64,000 nucleotides of DNA from a virus, in the IMG/VR virus record IMGVR_UViG_3300021963_007958; one strand, written 5' to 3'. Below the pieces are notes generated by a model, which did not search any database, had not been told where the DNA came from, and saw only the letters and a list, made by a program, of their open reading frames with translations. Each line of letters begins with the position of its first letter. Within the stretch, counting starts at the first letter, position 1. Of the stretch, positions 21,331-60,144 are shown piece by piece. The translations under genes were made by a program, and so were the position numbers.

Positions 21331-22692
21331 ATGAACAATAAATTTGTACTGGAATCTTTTCGAGCTTATCTTGAATTTACAGGGGAAAAAATCACAGAGG
21401 GTAAAAGCGATTTTGCTCTAGATCTAAATTTTGTTAAAGGATATGTCGATAAGATACTCGAAAAACAAAAGGAGTTGACCTCGAAATCCTCAATATTCTC
21501 CAAATACGCAGATTCACCAAATCCATACGAATCCTGGATTAAAGAATGGAAAGGAAGAAAATCGAATGCAGGTAAAGATTGGCCAGATAAAAAATCTCCT
21601 ACTGCATTACACGTCTATGGATCATTTGCAGCTCCATATCTATGGGATAAATTAACTCCTGAGCAGAAAGACGAAACTTATAAAGACCTAATGGGTCTTA
21701 TGAAGGGAAGCGGATACTCAACAGAAAAAGAATTTAATAAACTTCTAAAGGATAAAGATCAGGTTGGAGCAAAACCTTATGTTGCTGTTATCCCATCTTT
21801 TGTAGAAATACCACCAACAGAAATTTCTGTTCCTGGTAAAATTACAATAAATGGTATTGATGAAGGCATAGAGAATAAAGTTTTCAAAGATAATAGATGG
21901 GGTTCGGGTGACGATTCAGCAGGTGGAAAAGTAAATCCAGATGCCTTTCAAGATCCAGCAGTTCTAGCAGATATTAAATCCGAGATTGACAATTTTATGA
22001 AAAGTTTTTCCTCAGGAGAAATAAGTAAAATTATCTCTCTTAGAATAGAATCGTCTGCTTCGAGATACAGAAATACCAGTGATAACGGAGGAAAAGCAGA
22101 GAAATTATCTTGGGGCGAACTTGCTTATAACAGAGCAATAACTATTTTAAACTTATTTAGTGAGGCAGCAGACACCTATAATCTTTCAGAGGAGAAAAGA
22201 AAAGAACTAAAAGAAAAAGTTTTAATAGATTCCAAGGGGTCTAATGGGGACGGAACTAGTGGTCCTAATCCTCCAACTCCTTTAAAATTTGGTTACTACG
22301 ACGAAAAATCAACATTTGTTTTGGATAACGGAACATTTGGAAAGGGAAAATCACCAGAAGAAAATAGAAAAACAGTAGTAAAGGCAGTATTGGGAGAAGG
22401 AGGAAAACCTACTGGAAAGTATACAACTGCATCTATTGATCCAGAAGCTACAGCAGAAAGCTATGGTAAATTTAGATATGTTAACTTTGTCATTGAAGCA
22501 GAAACAATGTCCAAAGAACCAGATTTAATAGTTAAAGTACCGGGAGCAAAAGAAGCAAAATACACTCCGAAGGTTGGATTTCCTAAAACTACTTCAGGAC
22601 CACCAATAAAGAGGAAGAAAAGAATAAGGAGAATTATAGGAATTCCCGGAACAGGGACAAGTCCATTCTCGTGTCCAGGAGATCAATTCTAA
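21331..22692 (+). CDS. Hypothetical protein with degenerate OmpA-C-like domain
   Basis: Start reassigned to ATG 21331; SLRIESSAS...LSWGELAYNRAITI...KFRYVNFVI echoes OmpA-like motifs; N-terminal VLESFRAYLE...ITEG. Confidence 0.5.
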   Translation: MNNKFVLESFRAYLEFTGEKITEGKSDFALDLNFVKGYVDKILEKQKELTSKSSIFSKYADSPNPYESWIKEWKGRKSNAGKDWPDKKSPTALHVYGSFAAPYLWDKLTPEQKDETYKDLMGLMKGSGYSTEKEFNKLLKDKDQVGAKPYVAVIPSFVEIPPTEISVPGKITINGIDEGIENKVFKDNRWGSGDDSAGGKVNPDAFQDPAVLADIKSEIDNFMKSFSSGEISKIISLRIESSASRYRNTSDNGGKAEKLSWGELAYNRAITILNLFSEAADTYNLSEEKRKELKEKVLIDSKGSNGDGTSGPNPPTPLKFGYYDEKSTFVLDNGTFGKGKSPEENRKTVVKAVLGEGGKPTGKYTTASIDPEATAESYGKFRYVNFVIEAETMSKEPDLIVKVPGAKEAKYTPKVGFPKTTSGPPIKRKKRIRRIIGIPGTGTSPFSCPGDQF

Positions 22693-22708
22693 TCCAAGGA
22701 ATCATATA

Positions 22709-22740
22709 CAAAAAAACCCGACTAAAAATCGGGTTTTTTG
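22709..22740. terminator. Bidirectional intrinsic terminator
   Basis: CAAAAAAACCCGA-loop-TCGGGTTTTTTG between convergent genes. Confidence 0.85.
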
Positions 22741-22754
22741 TTTGGAAATAAATT

Positions 22755-23273
22755 TTAGATTCCGAAAGTAATAACGCAGAAGTACCTTATTCCTGGTTCT
22801 CCTTCGAAGATGTAGTTTTGATCCTTTACAATTTTAATCCCAACTTTATGAGCATCTTTATGAATCATTGCTTCGTTGTGTCCGGGGCTAAGTTTAAAAG
22901 ACTCTATTATTTTTTTGGCAAGGTCTTTATTGAAATAGTTAAATCCTTTTAAAGATCCCTTTCCGCCTAAAGTAATTTCTTGTCTACCAAATGGGCAATC
23001 CAAACCAGAGAAGTGTTTAATTCTTTCATCTGGATCTGAGATTTCATCAAATCCAGGGAAGTCTTGAAATTCAAAGTGAGTTACACTATCAGATAAAAGT
23101 TCATATTTTACTTGATGTTCAGCAGCTTTACAAAGACCTTTGTCGATCACTAATGGGCTTAGACCTTTAGAAACTCTATATTCGTTCAAATATTTAATAG
23201 TCTTTAATTCAGAAGAGTCTTGAGCTAAAGCTAAGATTGGAATTAAGAAGGAGATTAGAGCTAATTTTTTCAT
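22755..23273 (-). CDS. CAP/SCP-domain protein with signal peptide
   Basis: MKKLALISFLIPILALAQ; LNEYRVSKGLSPL, AAEHQ, SPGHNEAM. Confidence 0.8.
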   Translation of the reverse strand: MKKLALISFLIPILALAQDSSELKTIKYLNEYRVSKGLSPLVIDKGLCKAAEHQVKYELLSDSVTHFEFQDFPGFDEISDPDERIKHFSGLDCPFGRQEITLGGKGSLKGFNYFNKDLAKKIIESFKLSPGHNEAMIHKDAHKVGIKIVKDQNYIFEGEPGIRYFCVITFGI

Positions 23274-23322
23274 GATCTTTGATGTTTGGTTCATATAAAT
23301 ATACGAACCTCGGGACAAATAA

Positions 23323-24603
23323 TCAGGAATAAATTGGAAATCTTTGCATTAAATTTCTAGCTCTTTCTTTTGTTGTTATCAGAACTTGTGGGTTGTTGTG
23401 ATTCCGAAGTGCTGTGTCAATTAAATCTGCAATTATCGCCATCTCCTTCTCTTTCAATCCCCGCGTAGTAACGGCAGCAGTTCCGATTCTAATCCCGGAG
23501 GTGACAAAAGGGCTTCTAGTCTCGAACGGAACCGTGTTTTTATTCACCGTGATGTCACACTTAACGAGAGTGTCCTCAGCCATCTTGCCGGTTAAACTAT
23601 TAAACTTGGACCTCAGATCTATCAGCATCAGATGATTATCGGTTCCTCCTGAGATAATAGAATATCCCATCTCGGCTAAATGTCCTGCAAGCGTCCTAGA
23701 GTTCTTTATTACCTGTTCACAGTATTCTCTAAAGTCATCACTAAGTGCTTCTTTAAACGCTGCTGCTTTAGCTCCTATAATGTGTTCTAAAGGTCCTCCC
23801 TGAGTTCCAGGAAAAACTGCTCCATCTAAAATTGAACTCATCATCTTGATATCTCCCTTTAGAGTCTTTTCACCAAATGGATTTGCGAAGTCTTTTCCCA
23901 TCATAATAACTCCTCCTCTTGGACCTCTTAGAGTCTTATGAGTTGTCGTGGTTAAAATATGACAGTGAGGGACCGGATCGTTTAATAGTCCACTTGCAAT
24001 CAAACCTGCAGGATGAGAAATATCTCCCATCAAAATTGCTCCAACCGAGTCTGCAATAGATCTAAATCTTTCATAATCCCAGTCTCTAGAATATGAGCTA
24101 GCCCCGCAAATGATTAATTTGGGTCTTTCCCTCTTTGCTATCTCCTCTATCTTGTCGTAGTTTAGTAGACCAGTCTCCTCATCAACTCCATAAAAAGATG
24201 GGGTGTAGTTCTTGCCCGAAAAATTAACAGGGGATCCGTGAGTCAAGTGCCCTCCGTGACTGAGATCAAATCCTAAGATTTTATCGCCCGGTCTCAGAAC
24301 TGCTAGCATCACAGCTGCATTTGCTTGGGATCCTGAATGTGGCTGAACATTAGCCCATTCCACACCAAATAGCTTCTTTAATCTGTCGATAGCTAGCTGT
24401 TCAACCTTATCAACAATCTGACATCCTCCGTAATATCTACGGCTGGGAAGTCCTTCGGCATATTTATTGGTTAGAATACTACCTGCAATGTCCATTATTT
24501 GCTGGCTGACAAAATTCTCCGAAGCGATCAGTTCAATCCCTTCTTGTTGTCTCTTGAGTTCCTGATCGATCAGATCAAAAATCTCTTCATCTTTAGAGTG
24601 CAT
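23323..24603 (-). CDS. glyA: Serine hydroxymethyltransferase
   Basis: [50 protein letters not shown]. Confidence 0.98.
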
Positions 24604-25046: not shown

Positions 25047-26201
25047 TTATTTTCTAAGAGTGTATTTCTTAGCTAGAAAATCGGAAAGATCGTCGATGTT
25101 TTTCTTCTTCTGAGCTACCTTTTTAGCAGCTTCCTCTTCAGCAGATTTAACTTGAGCATCCCCGGAATACCTCAGATCGTTTATATCCGTTGTTCCTGCA
25201 ATCACGTCAGTGGATTTCTTTCTTCTGACATTTGTTTCTGCCTGTTTAAGTATTCCTTCCCTAACCTTGTCGATTATATCTTGTGCGGAATTTTCAAACT
25301 CTGAAGCTGCTGAAATTGGCTGATATGTGGAAACTAATTTTTGTCTTAGCGCATCAGCTTTTGGGTTCAATGCAGTTATCTCAGCATCGAACTTTTGAAG
25401 CTTTTTATAGTAGCCCTCTGCTGCTCTTTCTCCGATATTAGGGATATCATTCTGCATGATATTCTTAACCTTGTTGACATTGGGAACTATGTAAGTATCC
25501 TGAAAAGAAATAACTTCATTTTTTGAGTCCGGATAAGCAACTGCCAGATTATCTAGCATGTCATACATATTTAGAAGTTTTGCCCCTGTTGAGTCTGCTA
25601 ATCTTAGAAGATCCTGAGGTGTAGGGGGTACAAATTCTTGACCTTCAGAGACGAAAGAGAGATTCTCTTGGAGAGCAAGAGGTTTCATTGCCTTAAGGAT
25701 CTCATCCATGATAGACATTGACTTTGTTTTCTCTTCCGGGGTAAAGTTTTTAAGGGCTGCATTTGAAGCGGACCTTAAAAACTCAGTAGCTTGAGGAAGA
25801 TTCTCAGTTTCCTGCCCATAGTCATATTGCCCTCTTGCTCCAAATTCCCCTGGCTTAACCGGAAGATCCGAAAGAGAAGCAACTTTTCCTTGTAGAAATT
25901 TGGACATTTTAACAATCATGTCCCATCTTGCTGTTGGATCTTTTACTTTGATAATCTGGTCCATCAACTTTGGCCAGTTGTTAGGATCAAAAAATCCAGG
26001 TTTTTGGGCAAAGAAGAATCCGTAAAGACCAAAGATCTCGGAAAGCTTATAAGCGATGCTTCTGTAAGAGTCCTCTTTCCCTTTTTTGTCCGGACCTAAA
26101 GTTGAATCCTCATTAACAGAAAAAGTCCCACTTAAGGGACTTGTTTCTGTTTCCGATAGGCGGAAAGATTTAAAATTTTGTATGTTTGAAAGTCTTCTCA
26201 T
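25047..26201 (-). CDS. Helical protein with capsid-targeting-like N-terminus
   Basis: MRRLSNIQNFKSFRLSE; downstream of two paralogs in the same orientation. Confidence 0.6.
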   Translation of the reverse strand: MRRLSNIQNFKSFRLSETETSPLSGTFSVNEDSTLGPDKKGKEDSYRSIAYKLSEIFGLYGFFFAQKPGFFDPNNWPKLMDQIIKVKDPTARWDMIVKMSKFLQGKVASLSDLPVKPGEFGARGQYDYGQETENLPQATEFLRSASNAALKNFTPEEKTKSMSIMDEILKAMKPLALQENLSFVSEGQEFVPPTPQDLLRLADSTGAKLLNMYDMLDNLAVAYPDSKNEVISFQDTYIVPNVNKVKNIMQNDIPNIGERAAEGYYKKLQKFDAEITALNPKADALRQKLVSTYQPISAASEFENSAQDIIDKVREGILKQAETNVRRKKSTDVIAGTTDINDLRYSGDAQVKSAEEEAAKKVAQKKKNIDDLSDFLAKKYTLRK

Positions 26202-26219: not shown

Positions 26220-28337
26220 TTATTTTAGAAGTTTAAGAATTTCTTCTTTCATGGTATCTCCTTTAACGGACATAGTCTTGGTTCCTACACTTTTAACCTC
26301 TCCCGCTAGGGTTTCAGCTCCACCAATCCAAGGTTTTTCGTCCAGTTCATAAAGTTCCTGGAATCTTTTGATTGCTGGTTTTCCGTCTTTCATCTTTTTA
26401 CCGCTTAGAGCTTTAAGAATAGTCAAAACGTAAGCAAGATCCGATTCTTTTACATATCCATCGAGAGCATCTACTACTCCTTTAACTCCGTTTCTTCTGT
26501 CCTTAAGAAGATCAATAGCAGTTGCTGCTACTGCACCACCAAGAGGAAATCCAAGGAATGCTGCATACTTAGCTGCTGGAAGAATGGTATTGATAAAAGA
26601 AGATAGACCTGAAGTTTCTCCTAGAATGTCATCATCAGTAAGAGTTCCTTCTGTTTCATTCGCTTTTGCAGTATATTTTTCTTTCAGAAGATCAGCTAGA
26701 ATTTTATAAGCCCACTGTCCTCTAGGAGCTTTTGGATCGTTTAATTTATTTGGAGTTTCAGCTCCATTTCTTGTATCGTAAAGACCTCTTAGAGTATCTT
26801 CTCCTGCAAGACCATCTACGTGTTTACCGTTAAGCTTTTGGAATGATTTAACTCTTTCTACCGTATCGTCTGTGTAATTCTTCTCATCTGCAGTTTGTCC
26901 TACGATTCTATTGATTGCAACCACTACGTTTCCGGTGTCCCCCTTCTTATAAAGGAGTTTTACCTTTGCTGGTCCTGCTTCTTTAGAAGGATCGTATTTG
27001 GATTTTTTAGCAGCCTGATTTGATGAAGAAGCCTTAGAAGCCTTAACTGCTGCTTGGACATCAAAAGCTTCAGAAATCCCCGAATAAGCATCAAAGCTAA
27101 GAATTCTAGATTCTTTAATAGCTTCATCTTTCTTCAATTCTGCATAAAGTTCATTTGTGATATCAGGAGACGATGGATTTTCAAGACCGTATCCAGACTT
27201 CATAACTTTTACGATTTCTGCCGTACTACGACCAAATTTACCGTCTGTTCCCATTGATTTAAACTCAGGAAGATTTGCGACCGACTTTACGTTTTTGAAT
27301 TTATTCATTACCAACTCCTGGAATTCTTTAACTTTTCCGTTCTCTTCGTTAGATTTTTCTGGGTTGTATTCTACAACTGTTGCCTTTAAACCTGCTTTTT
27401 TAGTTGCTTCTTCCCCTTCTTTATTTTGAAGGTAGGTGATCTCTTTATCTTTTGCATCCTGAACTAGAGCTAAAGCCTGAACTAGAATTGCTGCTGCTTC
27501 TTTGTTAGTAGCATCTTGCTTAAGCATTTTTTCTGCAATTTTATCAGCTTCGGTTGGGATTTCCGCAAGTCTTGTAGCTGCTTTTTTAATCTCGTCTTTG
27601 CTGATCTCGTTATTCTTCTTGTCTAAAAGATCTCCCATCTTTGCAGCAATCTGGTTTACTTCAGTTTGGAGTTTTTGTACGTCTGCTGCCATTCCTGGAG
27701 TCTGAGCTAGAGAAGCAAGTTTTGCAGTGACAAGAGTTACCTGTTTGGATACATCTTCGATCATTCCCTTTTTACCTTGAAGAATTCCTTCGAAAATTTC
27801 CTCATCATCTCCGTGGTAAAAAGAATCATTCACCACTTTTGCTAGATCTGTCTTAAGATCATTGGACTTGGCAGAGTCTTGAATTCCTTTTAGATAAGAA
27901 TCTATCTTAGCGTTGATAAAGTCGTTAATGTGCTTAAGTTCTTCTGGTTGATCTTTGTATTGGTTGATCAAAGCTCCAAGAGCGTCTGCTGCTTTAGTTC
28001 CGGCAGCAACCCAAGCATCGATAGCCTCTGGTGCTCCCTTTGTTGTGTTTTCTGCGGAAGCCTGCTTAACTTTGCCCATAATTTTAATAAGGGCTGCTGG
28101 CTTATCTGCTACGGGAGCAGATTTTATAGAAGCCATGTCAGCATCTATGTTCGCATCGTAGGATTTAGCAGGGAAAGTCAATTCTGAGCTGTATGAATTT
28201 AAAGCAGTAGTCAAAATAAGACCTAAAGTTTGATCATAAAGCTTGCTAGCTTCTGTCGGCTTAGCAAGAAGCCCTGGCCCTGCTGCGTCTGCTTCATAAA
28301 GAGCGCTAAAGCTGGAGAAGTCGTGTATTTTTCTCAT
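26220..28337 (-). CDS. Modular helical protein with two PG-binding-like domains and a hydrophobic C-terminal segment
   Basis: MRKIHDFSSFSALYEA; DGKFGRSTAEIV; YKKGDTG...VKSFQKLNGKHVDGLAGEDT; AAFLGFPLGGAVAATAI. Confidence 0.65.
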   Translation of the reverse strand: MRKIHDFSSFSALYEADAAGPGLLAKPTEASKLYDQTLGLILTTALNSYSSELTFPAKSYDANIDADMASIKSAPVADKPAALIKIMGKVKQASAENTTKGAPEAIDAWVAAGTKAADALGALINQYKDQPEELKHINDFINAKIDSYLKGIQDSAKSNDLKTDLAKVVNDSFYHGDDEEIFEGILQGKKGMIEDVSKQVTLVTAKLASLAQTPGMAADVQKLQTEVNQIAAKMGDLLDKKNNEISKDEIKKAATRLAEIPTEADKIAEKMLKQDATNKEAAAILVQALALVQDAKDKEITYLQNKEGEEATKKAGLKATVVEYNPEKSNEENGKVKEFQELVMNKFKNVKSVANLPEFKSMGTDGKFGRSTAEIVKVMKSGYGLENPSSPDITNELYAELKKDEAIKESRILSFDAYSGISEAFDVQAAVKASKASSSNQAAKKSKYDPSKEAGPAKVKLLYKKGDTGNVVVAINRIVGQTADEKNYTDDTVERVKSFQKLNGKHVDGLAGEDTLRGLYDTRNGAETPNKLNDPKAPRGQWAYKILADLLKEKYTAKANETEGTLTDDDILGETSGLSSFINTILPAAKYAAFLGFPLGGAVAATAIDLLKDRRNGVKGVVDALDGYVKESDLAYVLTILKALSGKKMKDGKPAIKRFQELYELDEKPWIGGAETLAGEVKSVGTKTMSVKGDTMKEEILKLLK

Positions 28338-28386
28338 ATTGAATTTATTTTTAATTTTCTTATATATCTTTTTTTTTGAAGATTTT

Positions 28387-30027
28387 TTATTTCTTTTCCC
28401 CTTCTTTTTTGAGATAGATGTCCAATAAGTCTTTATCTATCCCCTTCTTAACTCCAGTTGTTGGAATGATGGTAGATTTAAGTCCCATTGCAACGGTATT
28501 TTTCTTCTGAGTCTCGTTGTACTTTGAAAAATTATCCCAGCTAGTTCTAAAGATAGTTCTAAATAGCTTCTTACCTTCTTCGCTCGGTTCAAAGTCTTTA
28601 CCTAGGATATAGTCAATCCCCTCTTTGTTGTCTGAATAAACCTCGTCTACTGTCTTCTTGAGTTCATCTAGAAGTTCTCCCGGGGTTGGAAGATCTTTCT
28701 TCTTCTCTTCCGCTTTCTTTTCTCCTGTTGCTTCTAAGAACTTATTAACGTCAAATTTAACTTTTGCTTCATTAATCTCTTCAAAATCAGTGAAGGATTT
28801 AAATCTTCCAAAAGAAAAGGATTCATTTTGCTTAGTAGATCCTGAATAGGAAAATACCTTATTCAGGAATTCATCGGTGATATCGGAAGTCTTGTCGTCC
28901 ATGCCAAATCCAGCCTTAAGTCCTTTAATGATCTTTGCTGTATTGTCTCCAAAATAACCATCCCCTGCAAATTTTCCTTCTGCAAACTTTTTAAAGTCTT
29001 CAGACCCTTTAATTATGTCTTTGAACTTTCTGATTACTTCTTCTTGGAAAGATTTTACCACTTGATTTTTCTTTCCTTTTACATCATCTTGTTTGACAGT
29101 TCCTTTGAACCCTATTGCATCTTTTGCAGATTTGTTCCAGTTATCTTCGGTCTCTTTTTCTTCTTTTGCCTTCTCTACGAATTTTTTATCATTCTCAGTA
29201 GCAGCTTCTAGAGACTTGAGTGCATCAACAAAAAGAGCTGCTGCCTCTTTATTTGTTTCGTCCTCTTTTGCTAAAGATTCGGACTTCTTAGATAGAAGAG
29301 TAGGGATTTCTGAAATTTTAGCTGCAATTTCTTCTAGTCTATCCCCGTCGATATCTTTCCTTTTCATATCCACCATCTTACCAACCTCTGCGCTTAGTTG
29401 GGTGACTTCATCCTGATATTTCTTAACATCTGCCTGCATTCCTGGGATGGCAGACATATCTTTAAGGATTGACATCACTACAGTTATTTCTTTTGAAATG
29501 TCTTTAATCTTTCCTTTCTTACCACTGAAAACACCTTCATTGAGATATTCAAAGCTTTCGTTCTTTTTAGATAAAGCTTGTTCTACTTCCTTTTTGAGAT
29601 CATTTTCTTTAGAAGAAGATTGGAGATTTTGTTTTTGGGTATTGATAAAATCTGTGATGGATTTTTCGATCTCCTCTTTATTATCAGGGAGTTTTTCGAT
29701 AATTTTACCAAGAGCAGCAATAAATTTTTCTCCTGCTGCTGTCCAGGATTCTCCTGCTGCTTTTGCTTCTGCACTGTCTTTATCGACTGCAGCTTTAACG
29801 TTTGCTAGGATTTTCTTATATGAATCAACTCCTGGAGCTTTTGCAACTGAATCCAAGTCTGCAATAATCTTAGCATCATAGGGATCTTCAGTTAGCTTCA
29901 ACTGAGACATATATGAAGTATTAATATAGGACAGGATTTGTTTTAGAAGACCCAGATAGGGTTTTTCTTTGTTTTCCTCTGCTTCGTAAATTTTTGAGAA
30001 GGAGGAGAAATCATAAATTCTTTTCAT
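28387..30027 (-). CDS. Paralog of the 26220 gene with PG-binding-like domain
   Basis: MKRIYDFSSFSKIYEA; DGYFGDNTAKII; colinear similarity over about 400 aa. Confidence 0.65.
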   Translation of the reverse strand: MKRIYDFSSFSKIYEAEENKEKPYLGLLKQILSYINTSYMSQLKLTEDPYDAKIIADLDSVAKAPGVDSYKKILANVKAAVDKDSAEAKAAGESWTAAGEKFIAALGKIIEKLPDNKEEIEKSITDFINTQKQNLQSSSKENDLKKEVEQALSKKNESFEYLNEGVFSGKKGKIKDISKEITVVMSILKDMSAIPGMQADVKKYQDEVTQLSAEVGKMVDMKRKDIDGDRLEEIAAKISEIPTLLSKKSESLAKEDETNKEAAALFVDALKSLEAATENDKKFVEKAKEEKETEDNWNKSAKDAIGFKGTVKQDDVKGKKNQVVKSFQEEVIRKFKDIIKGSEDFKKFAEGKFAGDGYFGDNTAKIIKGLKAGFGMDDKTSDITDEFLNKVFSYSGSTKQNESFSFGRFKSFTDFEEINEAKVKFDVNKFLEATGEKKAEEKKKDLPTPGELLDELKKTVDEVYSDNKEGIDYILGKDFEPSEEGKKLFRTIFRTSWDNFSKYNETQKKNTVAMGLKSTIIPTTGVKKGIDKDLLDIYLKKEGEKK

Positions 30028-30073
30028 TGGACATCTTTTATTTATGTCCTATATATCTCGGAGTAAGATGCTT

Positions 30074-36350: not shown

Positions 36351-36351
36351 T

Positions 36352-37745: not shown

Positions 37746-37747
37746 TA

Positions 37748-46605: not shown

Positions 46606-46806
46606 TTAGTTATTTTTTTCTTCCTGGTCCCTGCGGAACTGCTGGTATTTTGCCTTTCTAATCTCCTCTCTTCTAACTACAGATTTTTTTACAAATTCTT
46701 GTTTTTCAAAGAGTTGCTCTCTAGTTTTATTCTTGGTGAATTTATACTTCAATTTCTTGAGAGCAGAGTCTAGTGACTTTTCTTTCTTTAGGTCAATTAT
46801 AATCAT
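46606..46806 (-). CDS. rpsU: Ribosomal protein bS21
   Basis: MIIIDLKKEKSLDSALKKLKYKF...EFVKKSVVRREEIRKAKY. Confidence 0.9.
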   Translation of the reverse strand: MIIIDLKKEKSLDSALKKLKYKFTKNKTREQLFEKQEFVKKSVVRREEIRKAKYQQFRRDQEEKNN

Positions 46807-46823
46807 GGTTTTATATATCCAAT

Positions 46824-50373: not shown

Positions 50374-50450
50374 GATATTATAATATACGTATTGGAACTA
50401 AAAATTTCCTATGCCTTATGATATATACTTAAAAATAATATTTACCAGTA

Positions 50451-51874: not shown

Positions 51875-52255
51875 ATGACTACACACGTTCAAGAATATGA
51901 TTCATTTCTAAATGAATCAATGAATCCAAAATCTGCAACTGCAAACATTATCGAAGTTGTTACCAATGGAATGGGATGGATTGATCCAGACTATGCAATA
52001 GAGATGTTTATGGATCTAACTGGCCTTCCTGGTGATAACCAAGAAGTTGATTCTATGTTAGCTGCACTTTCGGATCTAGATCTTCTTTATTATGAGGATG
52101 ATTCTGTTTCAAATCATAAAGGAAAAAGAGTAGAGTTTGGACAGATTACAATGAAAGAAATGCCTCACAAAGCTCCGATGGACTCTCATAAAATGGGACC
52201 ATCAACTATGGAATCACAAAAATATAGGCTGAAGAGATTCGATGAGTTTAATTAA
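51875..52255 (+). CDS. Hypothetical protein with motif at both termini
   Basis: VQEYDSFLNES ... MESQKYRLKRFDEFN. Confidence 0.6.
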   Translation: MTTHVQEYDSFLNESMNPKSATANIIEVVTNGMGWIDPDYAIEMFMDLTGLPGDNQEVDSMLAALSDLDLLYYEDDSVSNHKGKRVEFGQITMKEMPHKAPMDSHKMGPSTMESQKYRLKRFDEFN

Positions 52256-52979
52256 GGGATTTGACGAATTTCTTTTAGAAGGATCCTACGATAAACTAAC
52301 GGGGGAGATTGCTTCTGCCGTAATGAGAAAAATTAAAGAGACTAACACCGGAGAAGAAGAATTCGACGGTATAAAAATCATTTATGGTCCAGGAGACGAT
52401 GTTCCAAGTTTTTATGAAATGATTGAAAACGAGGAATATCTAGACATTGATCACTTCATAGATACTGTTTCCGGGATAGACGTTAGAGTTTGTATTGCAA
52501 TAGTTAGAGACGAATCTCCAGAATACCAAGGGGAATTTATTTTAGATGGGGAGACTGACGATCAAAATTCTATCATTTACCTCTATCTGTATTTAACCCC
52601 AGGCACAGAACCTAGAGTTTACCCTGAAATTGCAATAGATCTAAGAAATCTTATTAGACACGAGGTTGAGCATCTAACTCAAAGAGGATGGGGAGAAAAA
52701 GAAGGAAAGAGAATGAGAAGAAATGAAGGAGTTAGAAAAAGAATTACAAGTAATCCTGAACTGTATTACAAATACTACACTCTGAAGGATGAAATTCCTG
52801 CAAATCTTCAAGGCCTTTATTCCGAAGCAAAAACTAGAAAACTACCATTTAAAGAGGTAGTTCATAATTATCTAGATAAAAAAGTTGAGCAAGGGGTTAT
52901 TCCACCTATAGAGAAGATGAGAATCTATCGTCTTTGGAAGGCTGCTGCTCAGAAGATTGGTGGACTTCCTCCACTTTAA
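52242..52979 (+). CDS. Zincin-like (HExxH) protein with capsid-targeting-like N-terminus
   Basis: MSLIKGFDEFLLEG; IRHEVEHLTQ...YYTLKDEIPA. Confidence 0.65.
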   Translation: MSLIKGFDEFLLEGSYDKLTGEIASAVMRKIKETNTGEEEFDGIKIIYGPGDDVPSFYEMIENEEYLDIDHFIDTVSGIDVRVCIAIVRDESPEYQGEFILDGETDDQNSIIYLYLYLTPGTEPRVYPEIAIDLRNLIRHEVEHLTQRGWGEKEGKRMRRNEGVRKRITSNPELYYKYYTLKDEIPANLQGLYSEAKTRKLPFKEVVHNYLDKKVEQGVIPPIEKMRIYRLWKAAAQKIGGLPPL

Positions 52980-53178
52980 GCTTAATTTTTACTGGGAGAA
53001 TATTTCCTATTTCTCCGCAGATATAATTAACATAAACCTTCTTTTCTAAGTTATAGATAGAAACCATCACATATCCAAGTTCTGTGATGTAAATGTCCTC
53101 TATTCTATTTGATCCTGTATCCCCCTCTACTTCTACGGGGAATTTACAAACGTTTTTTCTTATTGATTTGTGTTCCAT
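52906..53178 (-). CDS. Hypothetical protein
   Basis: 90 aa; overlaps the convergent gene by 74 nt. Confidence 0.4.
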   Translation of the reverse strand: MEHKSIRKNVCKFPVEVEGDTGSNRIEDIYITELGYVMVSIYNLEKKVYVNYICGEIGNILPVKIKLKVEEVHQSSEQQPSKDDRFSSSL

Positions 53179-54053
53179 TTTAATTTAGAAATGTAGTCGC
53201 TAAAACTTGAGACCTGCACACTTCTAAACTTCTGAACTGAAGACTCCTTAACTAGTCCTCCTTCTTCCTTTATAGTCTCTTCTTTATTAGGGATTTCTGC
53301 TCCCCAGGATTGTTCAAAGGCATTGGGAGCCTCTTGATACGATTTTTGTTCCTCATCTAGGGTATCTCTAGTAAACTGCCATCCCATAAATAACTCTTGG
53401 GGAGTTTCGAACCCAAAGAAATTCAAAACGTGATATTGTACTTCTAAAGATTCCTGAACTCTCCAGTTCTGACCGAGAAGAATCATTCCTGCTTTTTTCC
53501 CCTTAATGGTATTGGGTCCTTCGTAGGTTGTATGTGAACTTTCGATCCAATCTAATCTTTCAATTAACTTCTGATAGATTGCGTTAGGATTTCCCCATCT
53601 ATTAGAAGCAAAGAAAACAATGGCATCCGCTGTGTATATCTCATTCGCTATCTTCCAAAGCTCGTCGTCTTTGTAGTCTAAAGAAGCCCAGCACTTTAAA
53701 TGTCCATGAGGGTTTTTCTTTTCATCCTTAAGCTTAGCCTCTGGAGACCCACACATATTACCTTTTAATTCGCTGACGCACCCAAGACAGTTGTGGATCT
53801 TCAGTTTTGCTGCATCCATCAGAACAACCTCAACCCCTCTTTCTTCGAGAAGTTCTTTGAAGTGCTCTGCTAATCTGGTTGATTTTGGTTTTTCTCCTTT
53901 GTCGGAGATGTATTCGCCTCTGTTGCTGGTGGTAACAAAAAGAACCCTTTTCTCGGCAGATAATGTGCTAAGAAAAGGGTAAATATTTTCCATTTCTGGT
54001 CCATATTTAACCTGGATATTTATATCCGATAATAAATTATTAGGACCTGGCAT
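53160..54053 (-). CDS. Flavodoxin-like / iron-sulfur flavoprotein (FMN reductase family)
   Basis: TTSNR, IHNCLGC..C...CW, ADAIVFFAS, KLIERL, GKKAG. Confidence 0.75.
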   Translation of the reverse strand: MPGPNNLLSDINIQVKYGPEMENIYPFLSTLSAEKRVLFVTTSNRGEYISDKGEKPKSTRLAEHFKELLEERGVEVVLMDAAKLKIHNCLGCVSELKGNMCGSPEAKLKDEKKNPHGHLKCWASLDYKDDELWKIANEIYTADAIVFFASNRWGNPNAIYQKLIERLDWIESSHTTYEGPNTIKGKKAGMILLGQNWRVQESLEVQYHVLNFFGFETPQELFMGWQFTRDTLDEEQKSYQEAPNAFEQSWGAEIPNKEETIKEEGGLVKESSVQKFRSVQVSSFSDYISKLKWNTNQ

Positions 54054-54058
54054 GTTGA

Positions 54059-54508
54059 TTACTCGTCGTCTTCGTCTTCTTCGTCGTCTGACTTGCTCGA
54101 CGTGTCTAGCATTCCGGATTTAACCAATGCCTTCGCAACAGCATCTTTTCCGCCCATTAGGGCATTGAATCCTTCTGCATCATCAGAATCTTCCATTTCC
54201 CCACCTCCGTGTTGCTCCTCGTCTCCGTGATATCCCATTTCGATGCTATTAGCCATGAAATGATAAACCTCTTCTACATCATCAACGGAAGTTGCAATGT
54301 GATCCAAAGCCCACCCGTGACCATTAGTCAGGATTTCATCAACTTCGTGTGGATCTAGCTCTAGAAGTTCGTCAATTGCATTTTTAAGTGTGTGAAGATT
54401 CTGGAAGAACATATAGTTATTTAGTTCATGCCCCTCGTGATTTTCGTGGATTTCTCCTTGTGAAAAATCGTTAGATTCGAACTCTTCAAAAAATTTGATG
54501 TTTTTCAT
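54059..54508 (-). CDS. Acidic hypothetical protein with capsid-targeting-like N-terminus
   Basis: MKNIKFFEEFE; NYMFFQNL, GHGWALDHIAT. Confidence 0.65.
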   Translation of the reverse strand: MKNIKFFEEFESNDFSQGEIHENHEGHELNNYMFFQNLHTLKNAIDELLELDPHEVDEILTNGHGWALDHIATSVDDVEEVYHFMANSIEMGYHGDEEQHGGGEMEDSDDAEGFNALMGGKDAVAKALVKSGMLDTSSKSDDEEDEDDE

Positions 54509-54525: not shown

Positions 54526-54537
54526 GGATATATATCC
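54526..54537. promoter_or_regulatory. Palindromic bidirectional GATATATA box
   Basis: GGATATATATCC between divergent genes 54508 (-) and 54570 (+). Confidence 0.65.
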
Positions 54538-54569: not shown

Positions 54570-56150
54570 ATGGGAAAAAGAGTATTAGATTTTGACGGAT
54601 ATGTCCAAAATCACACTAGAACAAACGAATCGAAATTTGGAGACTTCATCTCTAAGGTTGGTTCTGCTATATCTTCAGGTGTAGCTAGATTTGCAAAGTT
54701 TGTTAAAGAAGGAATTATCAAGATGATTCCAGCAGGTCCAAAAAAAGGAACCCCGGCAGCAAACTACTTTTCTGAAGAAAATGGAAGTATTCTAGATCAA
54801 GTAAATGCACTTTACGCAGGAACTGAATTTGCTAAGATGAACCCAGTAGGTGTAAATGAGTCAGAGTCTTACGATGACGTAGACGAAGCAAGAGTTCCTC
54901 TTGAATATACCGGAGAAGATCAAACAGTTAGAAACGTTGGTCCGGATGAACTTAAAGACATGTTAGGTAAACTCTACAGATCAAAAGAAAGAGGAGGAAG
55001 AGCAAAACCTATCTTTATCTACGGAGCACCCGGTATCGGTAAAACCCAAATCGTTGCTCAAGCAGCAGATGCAGCTGGAGTTGATATGATTAACTTAGAC
55101 CTTCAATTCATGGCGCCAGAAGACTTTATGGGAATTCCTAAAGTTGTTGATATCGAAGAGCCAGAGTATGAGGAAGGAAGACTAAAGTCTGTTGGTAAAG
55201 GGGTAACGAGATCTAACCCTCCTGCAGTTCTTCCCGTTGATAACGGGCCAGATAATAAAGGTGGATTTATCTTTATGGACGAAATGAACAGAGCAAACAA
55301 GAGAGTTCTAAACTCTATGATGCAGTTCGTTCAAATGGGTAGAATTGGTCAATATCAACTTCCTGATAAATGGGTAATCGTTGCAGCTGGTAACAGACCA
55401 GAAGACGTATCTGGAGCAGGGGAAGTTGCAGAATTCGACTTTGCGATGGCGGACAGATTTAACATTATCAACTTCGTTCCGGATCCTAAGAAATGGGCAG
55501 AGTGGGCTAAAGGTAAAGGATCTTTCGAACCAGAAATTGTTGGATTTGTTGAAAGAAACCCAGAACTTTTCCACTACTTGGATAACGAAAAGAATGCTCT
55601 TAAATTCCCAACCCCACGTTCTTGGACCGATGCAGCAATGGCACTTAAAGACGAGCTGATCGACACAGGAGCTAAAGATTGGAGAGATCTTCCAACAGAT
55701 AGAATCTTCGACATCTACTCAGATGCGATCGGACCATCAGCAGCAGGAAAATTAAAAGCTTACTTGGACATCATCAAGAGAATTCCAGAAAGAGATCTTG
55801 AGATGATCGTTACAAATCCAGATAAGGCTACTCCAATTTCTAAAGGACCTGAATTCTCTAGCGTTTGCTACGGTCTATATGAAATGGCACTCAGAAAGGC
55901 AGAAGAGATGAACAACGGTAAAGCTACTGTTGAGAACCTATACAACATCATGAAGTACTATCAGATGCTAGACAACCTTGAAATTCTTTCATGGGTTTAT
56001 GCTAGAATCAAAGAGAAGTACCCAGAATTTGCTCTTACCGAAGACACCCTAAAAGAAAAAGATACCCCAGAAGGCAAGATGAAAATCGAAGCTGCAATGA
56101 TGGTTAAGAAGGGAATGGAAGGTAAGGGTCTAGTTACTCCTAAAAAATAA
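54570..56150 (+). CDS. MoxR-like AAA+ ATPase with N-terminal extension
   Basis: GAPGIGKT, FIFMDEMNRA, VAAGNR, AMADRF, FPTPRSW. Confidence 0.88.
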   Translation: MGKRVLDFDGYVQNHTRTNESKFGDFISKVGSAISSGVARFAKFVKEGIIKMIPAGPKKGTPAANYFSEENGSILDQVNALYAGTEFAKMNPVGVNESESYDDVDEARVPLEYTGEDQTVRNVGPDELKDMLGKLYRSKERGGRAKPIFIYGAPGIGKTQIVAQAADAAGVDMINLDLQFMAPEDFMGIPKVVDIEEPEYEEGRLKSVGKGVTRSNPPAVLPVDNGPDNKGGFIFMDEMNRANKRVLNSMMQFVQMGRIGQYQLPDKWVIVAAGNRPEDVSGAGEVAEFDFAMADRFNIINFVPDPKKWAEWAKGKGSFEPEIVGFVERNPELFHYLDNEKNALKFPTPRSWTDAAMALKDELIDTGAKDWRDLPTDRIFDIYSDAIGPSAAGKLKAYLDIIKRIPERDLEMIVTNPDKATPISKGPEFSSVCYGLYEMALRKAEEMNNGKATVENLYNIMKYYQMLDNLEILSWVYARIKEKYPEFALTEDTLKEKDTPEGKMKIEAAMMVKKGMEGKGLVTPKK

Positions 56151-56168: not shown

Positions 56169-57104
56169 ATGAAGTTTAGTAAAATCCATGTCGATATAGT
56201 GGACACCTTTGAGAAATTTCAAGGGGAAAGGGTCAAGAGTTTTTCACAATTTGTTGTTGAAAATTTAGGCCCAACTCTTAATGAATCTGACTATCAGAAG
56301 GAAATTGATGCAAGGGTGAAAGTTCATAGAAATCTTCTGTGGATTAATGCAAGGAAGGGATTCTTTGCTCAGCTACTTTCTAAATTAAATATCTACGGAG
56401 TTTCTGATCCTAGATATCAGACAATGTGTACTAACGGATTTAATATCCAGTACCACCCAGATTTTGTTCTAGGCCAGTCTGATGCAGCAATTAGATTTGT
56501 TCTCTGCCACGAGATTCTTCACTGTGTGGGAGACCACATGTCCAGAAGGGGAAGCAGAGATCCTTTGCTTTGGAACTATGCCTGTGATTATGCGATCAAT
56601 CCTATTCTAAATGTTGAAGTTGTTGGGGGAGCATTTGAATGGCCATCCAATTTGGACGGAAGCAGAATGGGTCTCTATGAAGAGAAATACGAGGGAATGA
56701 AAGCGGAAGACATCTACGATCTTTTAGTAGAAGATAAACAGCAACAGGAAAAAGCAGACGAAGCGTTCAAGGACGATCCTCAAAAAGGAATGCACGTAAT
56801 CGATGCAGACGAAGATCTTGGGGAACCTAATGAAGAGTCCGTAGTTCAGGAAGTTGGCGACGAAGAAGGTGAAGAAGGTGAAGGACAAAAACCAGGAATG
56901 CCAAAACCAGGAGAAGAGCAGGGAGAAGGCGAGCCACAAAAAGGACAGGGTAAACCAGGAGAAGAAGAGGGAGATGGTAAAGAGGAAGGTGGATCCGGGC
57001 AGGATCTGGTTGGAAGAAGAGTTAGAATTACCGCAGGACCAAATGCGGGACAAATGGGAACAATTAAACAGGTTCTATCTAACGGAGATATTATAATCGA
57101 ATAA
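56169..57104 (+). CDS. DUF2201_N-like metallopeptidase with acidic linker and C-terminal KOW-like motif
   Basis: TMCTNG, CHEILH, WNYACDYAIN, AEDIYD; VGRRVRITAGPNAGQMGTI. Confidence 0.82.
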   Translation: MKFSKIHVDIVDTFEKFQGERVKSFSQFVVENLGPTLNESDYQKEIDARVKVHRNLLWINARKGFFAQLLSKLNIYGVSDPRYQTMCTNGFNIQYHPDFVLGQSDAAIRFVLCHEILHCVGDHMSRRGSRDPLLWNYACDYAINPILNVEVVGGAFEWPSNLDGSRMGLYEEKYEGMKAEDIYDLLVEDKQQQEKADEAFKDDPQKGMHVIDADEDLGEPNEESVVQEVGDEEGEEGEGQKPGMPKPGEEQGEGEPQKGQGKPGEEEGDGKEEGGSGQDLVGRRVRITAGPNAGQMGTIKQVLSNGDIIIE

Positions 57105-57105
57105 C

Positions 57106-58107
57106 ATGCAAGTTAAAAAAGGAGATTTCGTAATCGTAGACGTAGATACCGTAGAGCCAGGAGGAAAACCTGCCGGCCAGGATAAACCACAATCTAAAGA
57201 CCAATCAAGTTCCCCACAGGAACTAGAAAGAGCCCCAGATCAGGTAGAAAAGCCAGGACTGGATATAGGAGGAAAATCTGGTGCCGGATACGAGAGATCA
57301 GGAAACATCCAAAAAGGAGGTTCGTCTAAAAAGTATTCGTCCCAAAAAGCTCTAGGGCAAGGAGGGACTAAAGCTGAAGCATCTGCTAAATGGGAGAATG
57401 CTCTTAGAGATGCTATTTCTAGAGCTGGATCTACACTATCAGATAAAGCAAGAAGATTATTAGCAGAACTAAAATCATCTAAACCTAAAGTTGACTGGAA
57501 GAAGGAACTTAAAAAGTTCATGGACTCTGCAATGACTAAGTTTGAAGACGTTCTACCAAATAAGAGATTTTTAGGAAGTGGTGATGTTCTATATGGAACT
57601 GAACTAGCAGGAAAAGACACTTTGAAGACATTGGTTCTTCCTGTGGACACTTCTGGATCTATTTCGAAGGATCAGATTGGAGCATTTTTAACCGAGGTAT
57701 TTTCACTAGCTACTAAGTTTGATATTGATGTAACTTACATAGTTTACACTTCGGATTCTATCGACTCGATAGATGTAGTTCCCAAAGGTAAGAAACCAGA
57801 CCTTAGTATGATCAGATCTACTGGTGGTAACAGAGAAGGATTCTTCCCTCCATTTAGATTCATCAAAGAACCTAAGAAATATCAAGGGAAAGCAAACGCT
57901 CCACTACCAAAGTCTATTAACCCATCAACAGTAATTTACTTCACGGATACTTTTGCTGAATATCCAACCAAAAATGATTTTGGGATTGCTAAGTATGCAA
58001 ATAGAGTATTCTGGTTTATCTGCTTAAGCAAAGACCAGAACTTTAATAAACCACCATTTGGAAAGTACATTCACGTTCCAATCGATAGCAAAGGTAATTT
58101 TACCTAA
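57106..58107 (+). CDS. vWA-like (DUF2201 C-terminal) protein
   Basis: KVDWKKEL, PNKRF, MIDAS VDTSGS...STGG...YFTD. Confidence 0.82.
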   Translation: MQVKKGDFVIVDVDTVEPGGKPAGQDKPQSKDQSSSPQELERAPDQVEKPGLDIGGKSGAGYERSGNIQKGGSSKKYSSQKALGQGGTKAEASAKWENALRDAISRAGSTLSDKARRLLAELKSSKPKVDWKKELKKFMDSAMTKFEDVLPNKRFLGSGDVLYGTELAGKDTLKTLVLPVDTSGSISKDQIGAFLTEVFSLATKFDIDVTYIVYTSDSIDSIDVVPKGKKPDLSMIRSTGGNREGFFPPFRFIKEPKKYQGKANAPLPKSINPSTVIYFTDTFAEYPTKNDFGIAKYANRVFWFICLSKDQNFNKPPFGKYIHVPIDSKGNFT

Positions 58108-58462
58108 AAATTTTAACTTTCCCAGATTCTTTGAGAATTTGATCTTCATCAATCTCAACATACAAAGGACCTTCTAGGTCCTTTTCTTTGAGGATATAAT
58201 CTAGATCTAGATCTTCCTCTGTTGCAACCACTTTTCTGGGATTGACCAACTTACTTCCATCTTTTAAGTAATAGATGTATGCATCAAATGGGTCTTTTTC
58301 GTCAATGGATTCAACTCTAGTTAGTCCATATAATCCAATAACTGGGTCACCTACTTTTAACTTTCCTCCTCTGGGTAAGGCTAACACATATGTTTCCTCG
58401 TTCGACTTTAGATAAGCCGACCCCTCTTTCTTTATTTTAAGTAATTCAACTCTTGATTTCAT
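58100..58462 (-). CDS. Hypothetical protein
   Basis: 120-aa ORF. Confidence 0.55.
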   Translation of the reverse strand: MKSRVELLKIKKEGSAYLKSNEETYVLALPRGGKLKVGDPVIGLYGLTRVESIDEKDPFDAYIYYLKDGSKLVNPRKVVATEEDLDLDYILKEKDLEGPLYVEIDEDQILKESGKVKIFR

Positions 58463-58468
58463 GATACT

Positions 58469-58957
58469 CTATGAAATTTGTTTTCTGATCTCTTCTGCTA
58501 CTGTTTTACCGACGCCGTAAGACATATCATAGTCGTTATCAGTAAAGACTGAGAATTTAATCCCCATAAAGTTTGGAATTTTCTTTGGCGTAAGTCTAAT
58601 TAAAATGGAATATTCATCATCGTCGATGTGAGGATCTGCTTGAATTTCATATCCTATTTCTATCTTCTTGTCCTCAGCTAGTCCAACATCTGATAGATCT
58701 GAGATAAGGTCATCTAGATCGGACGGATTTGGCTTTTGTAAATAGATCTCTATAATTCCCTTTCCAGAGTCTCCCCCAACTGCAGTTGAATATTCGCTGC
58801 TAACTGGATTTACTACTTCAACCGACTTCAACTCATATCCATTTTTCAAAGATGATTTAGAGGCAAGTGCAATTGTAACCCATCTCTGGATTTGTTCTCC
58901 CCATTTTAAATGGTCAGAAGACTGGTGTTGATCATATTCAAGTAGATGCTTCATCAT
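58469..58957 (-). CDS. Hypothetical protein
   Basis: MMKHLLEYDQH; overlaps the stop of the upstream gene. Confidence 0.6.
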   Translation of the reverse strand: MMKHLLEYDQHQSSDHLKWGEQIQRWVTIALASKSSLKNGYELKSVEVVNPVSSEYSTAVGGDSGKGIIEIYLQKPNPSDLDDLISDLSDVGLAEDKKIEIGYEIQADPHIDDDEYSILIRLTPKKIPNFMGIKFSVFTDNDYDMSYGVGKTVAEEIRKQIS

Positions 58958-60144
58958 AGTCCAATGTCATCTAGAGCGGAAAGCATCTCTGCATCTGCTT
59001 TTGTATCTTCAGGAATTTCAATCTCTCTCAGAATTTTCTTAACCCTAAAGTCGTTCCAGATAGATTTGAGTCCAACTACGAATCTCTCCCCGTTTTGTTC
59101 TATTTCTTTCTTGATGTTATCAGGAGCTAATTTTTCCCTGATTGGATCTTTTGGTGCTTTTCCGGTCTTGATAAAATCAGGATCGGTGAACATGCTCAGG
59201 TAAGCAACTATCCAACTCTTAGTTTCCTTTGCTACATTCAGAGCTCTTCTTAGAACCACGGGCTTAAGACCATTTTTTTCCAGATTGACATAATAATCTT
59301 TATCTAGAGGAAGTCCTTCTAGACTGTATAGATTCTCACATAAGTTAAATGAATAGGTAGGGGTTCTAGGATTACCGGTAATCAAAATTGGAGCTCCTTC
59401 TAGAGAAGAAAGGGAATGACAGTAACTGGCAGAAAAAGAAGCATAAGGATTATTTATTTCTACCGGGGCTCCTTTTAAGCTCCTTATCCGAGTTGAATTA
59501 CATTCATAGTTTCCAGTTCTTTTTGGTCCACCTTCTAGAGACGTAAGATTGTAGCAATCTGTAATATTGAATGCCTCTCCTACTTCTTCCGGTGATCCTT
59601 CTAAGCTATTTAATTTTTGATTAGAACTCAAATTGCAAGATTTTCCGACTTTCTTTGGACCTCCAACTAAATTTTCGAATTTATTATTTGAAGCATTAAA
59701 ATTTCCTGTTACCTCTTCAGGGAATCCTTCCATCGAGGTTAGCATACAGGCATTAATCCAAAAATCTCCGTCCACCTTTCCAAATTTAAGCCCCAGGAGA
59801 CTTCCTTCTTTAAAATCTTGGACTGATGGTCCATTAAATCTTCCTACAACATCAATTAGTCCAGTCTCTGGATTTATACTCCAGGATGAATCTGGATCAC
59901 TGCCCCATCTCTTCTCGACTGCTTTGTCTAGAGCTTTAATCTGTCTAGGAGTTAATTTACCAGACCATCCTGGTTCTTCTATTTCCAGCTCCTTACAAAT
60001 CTTACCATAATCTTTACCGGAAGAGTCACAATACCTTCTAAGAGTTAGAAGGAAATCCTTCATCTCCTTTGGATCAAGTTGATCCATATTTTGTAGCTCT
60101 TCGTAAAGAGCAAATGGTAATAAAGTCTTAATTTTCTTGTTCAT
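58954..60144 (-). CDS. Leucine-rich-repeat-like protein (LxSLEGxP repeats)
   Basis: About 7 repeats of about 22 aa; GATATATA at 60171-60178. Confidence 0.75.
   Translation of the reverse strand: MNKKIKTLLPFALYEELQNMDQLDPKEMKDFLLTLRRYCDSSGKDYGKICKELEIEEPGWSGKLTPRQIKALDKAVEKRWGSDPDSSWSINPETGLIDVVGRFNGPSVQDFKEGSLLGLKFGKVDGDFWINACMLTSMEGFPEEVTGNFNASNNKFENLVGGPKKVGKSCNLSSNQKLNSLEGSPEEVGEAFNITDCYNLTSLEGGPKRTGNYECNSTRIRSLKGAPVEINNPYASFSASYCHSLSSLEGAPILITGNPRTPTYSFNLCENLYSLEGLPLDKDYYVNLEKNGLKPVVLRRALNVAKETKSWIVAYLSMFTDPDFIKTGKAPKDPIREKLAPDNIKKEIEQNGERFVVGLKSIWNDFRVKKILREIEIPEDTKADAEMLSALDDIGL

Follow-up and report, generated by a model that had tools for sequence, protein, structure and literature searches.

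Leader genes in the window

We analysed a 64,000-nucleotide stretch of viral DNA (IMG/VR record IMGVR_UViG_3300021963_007958; hereafter, the window), in which 11 genes lying between positions 21331 and 57104 encode proteins with a common type of N-terminal leader. Each leader consists of hydrophobic-x-x-[F/Y]-x-x-[F/Y], followed by Glu-[Ser/Ala/Gly/Thr] after 1-10 residues (19 in leader J). An earlier reading of the same DNA, made from the letters alone (the sequence-only reading), had described a capsid-targeting-like leader on about 13 unrelated proteins. All 14 N-termini that it quoted lie at the positions and on the strands it gave, and the shared leader is real; the count is better put at 11 leaders on 10 protein families, with three further N-termini that are weak. 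The 11 leaders, lettered A to K, and two internal copies are as follows.

29983-30027, minus strand: leader A, residues 1-15 of a 546-residue protein (28387-30027); ends I-Y-E, then Ala
28293-28337, minus strand: leader B, residues 1-15 of a 705-residue protein (26220-28337); ends L-Y-E, then Ala
26151-26201, minus strand: leader C, residues 1-17 of a 384-residue protein (25047-26201); ends L-S-E, then Thr
46555-46602, minus strand: leader D, residues 1-16 of a 107-residue protein (46279-46602); ends L-N-E, then Ser
51075-51122, plus strand: leader E, residues 1-16 of a 265-residue protein (51075-51872); ends A-N-E, then Ala
51875-51916, plus strand: leader F, residues 1-14 of a 126-residue protein (51875-52255); strict heptad, then Ser
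52242-52280, plus strand: leader G, residues 1-13 of a 245-residue protein (52242-52979); strict heptad, then Gly
54476-54508, minus strand: leader H, residues 1-11 of a 149-residue protein (54059-54508); top score with the position matrix described below
54570-54629, plus strand: leader I, residues 1-20 of a 526-residue MoxR-type AAA ATPase (54570-56150); ends T-N-E, then Ser
56169-56285, plus strand: leader J, residues 1-39 of a 311-residue DUF2201_N and KOW protein (56169-57104); ends L-N-E, then Ser
21331-21399, plus strand: leader K, residues 1-23 of a 453-residue protein (21331-22692); sites V-L-E/Ser and I-T-E/Gly
28768-28812, minus strand: internal leader copy in protein A, residues 406-420; ends I-N-E, then Ala
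27069-27113, minus strand: internal leader copy in protein B, residues 409-423; ends I-S-E, then Ala; N-terminal to the PG_binding_1 domain

The two aromatic residues three apart, [F/Y]-x-x-[F/Y], are present in 11 of 11 leaders, the first of them mostly at residue 7, and are followed by a spacer of variable length before the Glu site. Two residues before the Glu, eight of the leaders have Leu or Ile and the other three Ala, Thr or Glu. Only leaders F and G fit the strict heptad [FY]xx[FY][LIVM]xE, and G is the nearest match in the window to the leader of the internal proteins IPII and IPIII of phage T4. Leader J contains two copies of the aromatic pair.

Past residue 45, the proteins carrying leaders A and B are related to each other (35% identity), and the other 12 leader proteins, the weak ones among them, gave no mutual blastp match at E<0.01; the 11 good leaders therefore sit on 10 families. 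The body of protein A combines a helical module with a PG_binding_1-like segment, for which the ESM Atlas offers PG_binding_1 as a lead only, and protein B has a PG_binding_1 domain at residues 486-517.

Three other N-termini, lettered L to N, are doubtful as leaders on their sequences.

50451-50501, plus strand: weak or variant leader L, on a DUF5856 (Dps/ferritin-like) protein (50451-51059); without a Glu-small site
58922-58957, minus strand: weak leader M, on a 162-residue protein (58469-58957); degenerate in the window
60094-60144, minus strand: weak leader N, on a 396-residue protein (58954-60144); aromatic core present and conserved, without a Glu-small site

Leader L is conserved in a different form in its orthologues and is followed by a Pro-rich linker, and the orthologue of M in L002 has a clear, good leader. 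The protein that carries N (minus strand) ends in an acidic C-terminal tail, ...L-D-D-I-G-L.

Two further observations bear on the leaders. In an FMN_red flavoprotein (53160-54053, minus strand), the last ~30 residues (53160-53261) comprise a V-K-E/Ser site and then a hydrophobic-x-x-Phe-x-x-Tyr core, and this C-terminal element may, judging by its sequence, be a copy of the leader. The T4 protein Alt is processed at both ends (PMC9026906). At 56169-58107 (plus strand), two adjoining open reading frames (ORFs) match the two halves of a single PHROG family (phrog_1314, positions 8-183 and 161-391), so the usual single gene looks split; the first ORF is the DUF2201_N and KOW protein, the second a VWA-like DUF2201 protein, and the leader is on the first half only.

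Definition and enrichment of the motif

For counting, a strict pattern was defined as [LIVMF]xx[FYW]xx[FYW] beginning within residues 1-12, with E[ASG] no more than 14 residues on, and its aromatic part alone was counted as the core. The strict pattern occurs in 9 of the 77 window ORFs, compared with 0.7% of internal 12-residue segments (binomial p about 6e-9), and the core in 14 of the 77, compared with 4.3%. Because these patterns were written after the data had been seen, two controls that keep the composition of the N-termini were added, in which either the residues were shuffled inside each N-terminus or the columns were shuffled across N-termini (500 rounds each). The shuffles yielded 3.5-4.5 core and 0.8-1.1 full matches, with maxima of 10 and 5, against the observed 14 and 9. 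Leu or Ile stands two before the Glu in 70% of window leaders against a background of 17%, while the Ser, Ala or Gly after the Glu is fixed by the design of the search.

A position matrix was then trained only on a complete relative of 373 kb and 518 ORFs (G005) and scanned over all positions of all window proteins. Six of its seven top matches fall at annotated N-termini, and 10 of its 14 top matches are leaders already named by the sequence-only reading, which had itself suggested a scan with a motif model. The fifth-best match, in the ORF annotated from 45580, is internal, given the likely GTG start of that ORF at 45454. We rejected this ORF (45454-46011) as a leader protein despite its good score: the motif lies about 58 residues inside a PNK/HAD-like enzyme, and the ORF was not counted because its HAD motif adjoins the GTG start. 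Glycan, replication and metabolic genes of the window have no credible N-terminal match to the matrix, and the sequence-only reading had not seen the motif on them either; one weak match lies at 3208-4179, within a glycosyltransferase-like paralogue family.

Relatives of the window phage and conservation of the leader

The window has a G+C content of 37%, its genes lack Shine-Dalgarno sequences, and it encodes T4-type recombination and replication genes. For its UvsX-like gene (20056-21240), the best GenBank matches, at 35-40% identity, are metagenomic huge phages of 460-735 kb and Lak phages. Closer relatives, with UvsX 74-88% identical to that of the window, are found in IMG/VR and include complete genomes of 349-435 kb. 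Among GenBank phages, neither megablast with 12 kb of the window nor tblastn with protein A gave a match, and a search for a cultured close relative found none. Two more distant genomes were used for comparison: G009 (UvsX 36% identical, 32% G+C, 179 ORFs counted) and the published huge phage LR756500.1 (462 kb, 24% G+C), of which a 150-kb sample (150001-300000) was taken.

The motif is enriched in G005, in G009 and in the LR756500.1 sample. G005 has the strict pattern in 27 of 518 ORFs, compared with 0.5% of internal windows (p 6e-19), and the core in 58 ORFs, compared with 3.5%; its loose-pattern matches include a thioredoxin and a few others that are evident false positives. In G009, the aromatic core is present in 39 of 179 ORFs (p 1e-20), and the LR756500.1 sample contains 16 core and 7 strict matches against 7.0 and 1.1 in shuffles. 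In that same sample, seven ORFs of 537-647 residues have a single strict heptad each, some 100 residues from the C-terminal end, and may form a paralogous family with a conserved internal site. Among orthologues of the window proteins (23-77% identity), the aromatic pair and the Glu site are kept while the other leader residues drift; the homologues of protein C in L022 and L027 (23-27% identity), for example, keep the aromatic pair.

Putative cargo and the modular nature of the leader

The leader behaves as an add-on. Known domains begin after it: AAA_5 near residue 146 in protein I, DUF2201_N at residue 62 and DUF5856 at residue 93 in the window, and ADK at residue 27 in G005. Distant homologues of the MoxR ATPase and of its DUF2201 partner start without a leader; the L037 homologue of the ATPase is without the first ~120 residues. 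In the family of A and B, the internal leader copy, with Glu-small sites flanking it, is placed where shorter members end and a variable C-terminal module begins, which makes these copies candidate polyprotein joints that a protease would cut.

The proteins that bear the leader are diverse. In the window they are two peptidoglycan-binding proteins, the MoxR-type ATPase, its DUF2201_N/KOW partner and seven orphans; in G005 they include adenylate kinase, a RimK-type ATP-grasp enzyme, OmpA-family and PG_binding_1 proteins, a CHAP peptidase and an SLT transglycosylase. The sequence-only reading had listed an ATPase, proteases and peptidoglycan-binding proteins; the ATPase and the peptidoglycan-binding proteins were borne out, but the proteases rest only on the Pfam name of DUF2201_N, 'putative metallopeptidase'. 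Domains that bind or cut the cell wall (PG_binding_1, OmpA, CHAP, SLT) would fit an action during entry. G005 homologues were found for 3 of the 14 leader proteins and for 28 of the 63 other ORFs, a difference in turnover that falls short of significance (p 0.14), the glycan islands being equally variable.

Promoter-like boxes and timing

The window contains 12 copies of GATATATA, compared with 2.9 expected, and each gene with a strong leader either follows an ATATATA box immediately or stands further down a same-strand run headed by one. The placing of leader genes in box-headed units, which the sequence-only reading had reported for nearly all of them, thus applies to all the strong leaders. 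The boxes next to leader genes are listed below.

21302-21309, plus strand: GATATATA box, late-promoter-like, 22 nt ahead of the start of K
30050-30057, minus strand: GATATATA box upstream of A
28361-28368, minus strand: GATATATA box upstream of B, with C later in the same run
46812-46819, minus strand: GATATATA box upstream of the bS21 gene and D, beginning 13 nt before the bS21 ATG
50420-50427, plus strand: GATATATA box heading the run L, E, F, G
54527-54536, no strand assigned: palindromic GATATATATC between the divergent genes H and I, giving a box on both strands

The association is also present in G005, where an ATATATA box lies no more than 60 nt upstream of 27 of 58 (47%) leader genes and of 52 of 460 (11%) others (odds ratio 6.8, p 1e-9), an enrichment of the kind that the sequence-only reading had proposed examining. 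In G005, such a box also heads the protease-scaffold gene described in the next section and fibre-like genes, and the genome encodes a gp55-like late sigma factor. The boxes and the sigma factor fit late expression of the leader genes, as far as sequence can indicate. In G005 the box starts most often 11 nt from the ATG (13 genes), and a second peak lies at 24-33 nt; were the ATATATA box to work as T4 late promoters do, mRNAs of the 11-nt class would be nearly leaderless.

A protease-scaffold fusion and the capsid protein in relatives

The prohead protease of T4 is gp21. Each of the seven relatives with a searchable head module has one match to the gp21-family domain PF03420, and it lies within a 640-660-residue ORF; the two closest contigs, fragmentary at ~35% completeness and without the head module, gave no PF03420 match. 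The first ~170 residues of this ORF align to residues 40-147 of T4 gp21 (28% identity, E 2e-7). The His and Ser motifs are retained, and the matches to PF03420 and to phrog_207, the PHROG head maturation protease family, span residues 20-310. The protease domain is followed by 11-14 tandem repeats of 14 residues, of the type YSEYLAENLDK, and then by a tail with several L-N-E/Ser-type sites. The heptad of the leaders and of the T4 capsid-targeting sequence (CTS) recurs in every one of these scaffold repeats. Of 32 strict heptads in G005, 12 belong to the protease-scaffold protein, 11 lie within residues 1-20 of other proteins and 9 are elsewhere.

The repeat is nearly alike in all clades reached and is degenerate only in LR756500.1, and full-length homologues of the fusion are present in GenBank metagenomic phages of 460-735 kb. 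In the relatives, the capsid gene is directly downstream of the protease-scaffold gene, and in G005 the propeptide of the major capsid protein contains Tyr-x-x-Tyr a short way ahead of L-N-E/Ser, in parallel with the propeptide of T4 gp23. An AlphaFold2 model of the fusion, built from a 7-sequence alignment, draws the repeat region as one long helix, so a helical scaffold is suggested with low confidence (mean predicted local distance difference test score 43). A complex prediction with the scaffold repeat region and a 40-residue leader scored 0.00 with controls not run, and counts neither way. Upstream of the head module, G005 has two adjacent ORFs of 532 and 538 residues with N-termini that are alike (35879-39098, that is, L044:15879-19098).

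Other genes of the window

The window also contains large glycan-synthesis islands, a tRNA-Ser, genes for bS21 and a ClpB-like ATPase, and numerous orphan genes. The 66-residue ORF at 46606-46806 (minus strand) reads as ribosomal protein bS21, and leader gene D is directly downstream of it. Freshwater Bacteroidota phages with a late-expressed bS21 have been described (PMC9723584). At 46824-48932 (minus strand) is a full-length double AAA+ protein of the ClpB/ClpA type (AAA_2, AAA_lid_9, ClpB_D2-small). Its N-terminus is rich in Asp and bears no leader, and the protein shares 69% identity with the counterpart in G005. Three metabolic genes on the minus strand, SHMT-like (23323-24603), MetF-like (60183-61067) and CysK-like (61149-62051) as judged by N-terminal sequence, are likewise without a leader, yet the SHMT-like and CysK-like genes have ATATATA boxes upstream.

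Comparison with known systems

The closest known counterpart is the CTS of T4, which is found on IPI, IPII, IPIII and Alt and is removed by the prohead protease gp21 (Mullaney and Black 1996, reviewed in PMC9026906, PMC3012670, PMC5694885). IPII and IPIII, read from NC_000866, both begin MKTYQEFIAE, then Ala, which fits the strict heptad. For incorporation into the head, the first ten residues of IPIII are enough; mapping assigned targeting chiefly to residues 4 and 7, and residues 8 and 10 to processing (PMC9026906), the two pairs being Tyr and Phe, and Ile and Glu, respectively. The protease cuts after Glu in L/I-x-E (PMC9026906), and the maturation cut in the T4 capsid protein gp23 follows the strict heptad too. 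The likeness to the IPIII leader that the sequence-only reading had noticed thus extends to the mapped determinants, and the orthologues, the add-on nature of the leader, the protease-scaffold gene, the capsid propeptide and the late-type boxes are as that likeness predicts. What the two systems share is an N-terminal element with two aromatics three apart and Leu/Ile-x-Glu plus a small residue, placed on unrelated bodies, in a lineage with a gp21-family protease and, as the promoter-like boxes suggest, probably with late expression.

The two also differ. T4 tags a handful of small, mostly basic proteins, whereas here the leader is on 11 of 77 window ORFs, and the core is on roughly 8-20% of the ORFs of relatives. 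Unlike those of T4, some of the tagged proteins are enzymes 300-700 residues long, and others are two-module proteins that contain an internal leader copy. The first aromatic is at residue 4 in T4 but mostly at residue 7 here, where the distance from aromatics to cut varies, and the separate gp21 and gp22 of T4 contrast with a protease fused to a repeat scaffold in the relatives. The function of the T4 CTS is known by experiment, while the window leaders are known from sequence alone.

In phiKZ, 201phi2-1 and SPN3US, many head-internal proteins, enzymes included, are cut after Glu by a gp21-related protease (Thomas et al.; PMC5694885, PMC7411985, PMC10052503). Propeptides of the phiKZ/SPN3US type are mostly longer than 100 residues, have no common leader and end in Ser/Ala-x-Glu, whereas the window leaders have 11-39 residues, one motif and mostly Leu or Ile two before the Glu, in a lineage with T4-like replication genes. 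By these sequence features, the window leaders do not fit that type.

P2 gpO and herpesvirus UL26 each combine an N-terminal maturation protease and a C-terminal scaffolding segment in one polypeptide. This is the layout of the 640-660-residue ORFs of the relatives, although the protease family differs (S77/gp21 type in the relatives), and the scaffold, unlike that of gpO and UL26, has 11-14 near-identical 14-residue repeats with a potential cut site in each. We know of no description of a scaffold of this kind. The internal core protein gp16 of T7 has a transglycosylase domain and, as a head-internal protein with a peptidoglycan domain acting at entry, resembles the PG_binding_1, OmpA, CHAP and SLT cargo; the T7 core proteins differ in that they are not known to have a shared cleavable leader or a protease step. 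Full-text searches of a literature collection returned no paper on genome-wide CTS-like leaders in uncultured T4-like or huge phages. Taken as that of the T4 CTS, the mechanism would be an established one; its scale, the enzyme and two-module cargo, and the protease-fused heptad-repeat scaffold would be what is new.

Interpretation and alternatives

We propose that the shared leaders are head-loading propeptides removed by a protease, that is, a greatly expanded form of the T4 CTS system, and we give this a probability of about 0.7. The sequence-only reading had likewise proposed packaging, maturation and ejection into the host for a tagged cargo, and the sequence evidence bears this out in part. 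From the features described above, we infer docking, cutting, packaging and ejection in the following manner. Leader proteins would be made late, alongside the head proteins. The two aromatics three apart, on a short helix, would dock the protein on the scaffolding core of the assembling prohead, a core for which this lineage would use a scaffold segment, with the same heptad 11-14 times over, fused to a gp21-type protease. Once the shell has closed, the protease would cut after the Glu of [L/I/T]-x-Glu followed by Ser, Ala or Gly; the short leader would be lost and the mature protein freed in the head, and A and B, with their internal copies, would be cut into two modules. The cargo would then be carried by the virion, and some or all of it would exit alongside the DNA.

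Several points weigh against this proposal. The support comes from sequence, and the protease-scaffold gene has been seen only outside the window, in relatives with UvsX 36-77% identical. The patterns were defined post hoc. The aromatic-to-Glu spacing of 1-10 residues (19 in J) departs from the fixed 10-residue leader of T4, the strict heptad is found in just two window leaders, and 3 of the 11 have Ala, Thr or Glu in place of Leu or Ile two before the Glu. Some of the cargo, such as the presumably oligomeric MoxR ATPase and, in a relative, adenylate kinase, is not obviously of use in a capsid.

Other explanations of the leaders can be weighed against the same evidence. The leader might be a docking tag for some other late process, for instance one in which phage chaperones (ClpB-like or MoxR) recognise it or in which it takes proteins to a membrane or a site of assembly, with the Glu-small site incidental or cut by a different enzyme. 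A ClpB/ClpA-like AAA+ protein and the MoxR-DUF2201 pair are indeed encoded near the leader genes, the link to late-type boxes would suit any late process, and the head location of the cargo is itself inferred. We nevertheless consider a tag of this sort unlikely: it leaves unexplained why a protein fused to the head protease has 11-14 heptad repeats, why a like site ends the capsid-protein propeptide and why the leaders match the head-targeting determinants of T4. The MoxR ATPase, moreover, is itself tagged and therefore looks like cargo, not like a reader of the tag. Alternatively, the leaders may be protease-removed propeptides that keep proteins inactive and have no targeting role, the proteins entering the head through other parts or being cut outside it. 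The enrichment of Glu-small sites with Leu or Ile two before the Glu would be expected of such propeptides, and leader-bearing wall hydrolases in the relatives might need to be held inactive. However, the most conserved feature is the aromatic pair and not the cut site, the corresponding T4 aromatics were mapped to targeting and not to processing (PMC9026906), and a separate targeting surface on each of ten unrelated bodies is hard to credit, which leads us to rank this possibility lower still.

It is also conceivable that the likeness is a nucleotide or translation-start signal in an A+T-rich genome, or a 5' gene segment spread by recombination, and that the peptide has no function. Numerous genes do begin Met-Lys-Asn/Lys-Ile/Leu-Lys, as A-rich codons at the beginning of genes would give, and the genes have no Shine-Dalgarno sequences. 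But the column shuffles, which keep position-specific composition, never reach the observed counts, the internal copies lie 400 residues into proteins, and the same heptad recurs as a protein repeat in the scaffold. The exchange of Phe and Tyr, together with the drift of orthologues at other positions, points to selection on the peptide, and this explanation, in either form, seems very improbable to us. We give least credence of all to a chance or compositional likeness among a few N-termini. The motif is short, degenerate and defined after the fact, but in four genomes the counts surpass every shuffle and internal-window control, and a matrix from another genome ranks the window leaders first.

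Head loading by a cleavable leader thus remains our preferred explanation, and the protease-scaffold fusion allows a more specific, though tentative, version of it that we would sooner doubt than assert. The leader may be one copy of the 14-residue repeat of the scaffold, in which case the cargo would co-assemble as a mimic of a scaffold unit and be released by the cut that dismantles the scaffold. That every tagged protein is ejected appears to us more doubtful than this.

Implications for huge phages

To our knowledge, the partner of the T4 targeting sequence has not been pinned down, and the heptad repeats of the protease-fused scaffold suggest a concrete one. If our interpretation is true, the leaders would constitute a natural library for the T4 protein-packaging platform, as well as a sequence rule by which virion-internal proteins could be predicted straight from metagenomes. 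While the T4 leader loads three or four small proteins, this widespread lineage of uncultured giant phages would load dozens per genome, enzymes included. The lineage includes published genomes of 460-735 kb that share the protease-scaffold gene, and leaders were sampled in one of them only, LR756500.1. If the cargo does mimic scaffold units, a simple and portable code would ship a starter proteome amounting to 8-20% of genes across a lineage of huge Bacteroidota-type phages that extends to the largest genomes known; ATPases of the chaperone kind would be part of it, as would enzymes for nucleotides and the cell wall, and polyproteins of two modules that are separated in the head. On either version of our interpretation, arrival in the host with a ready-made toolkit would partly explain very large genomes and capsids.

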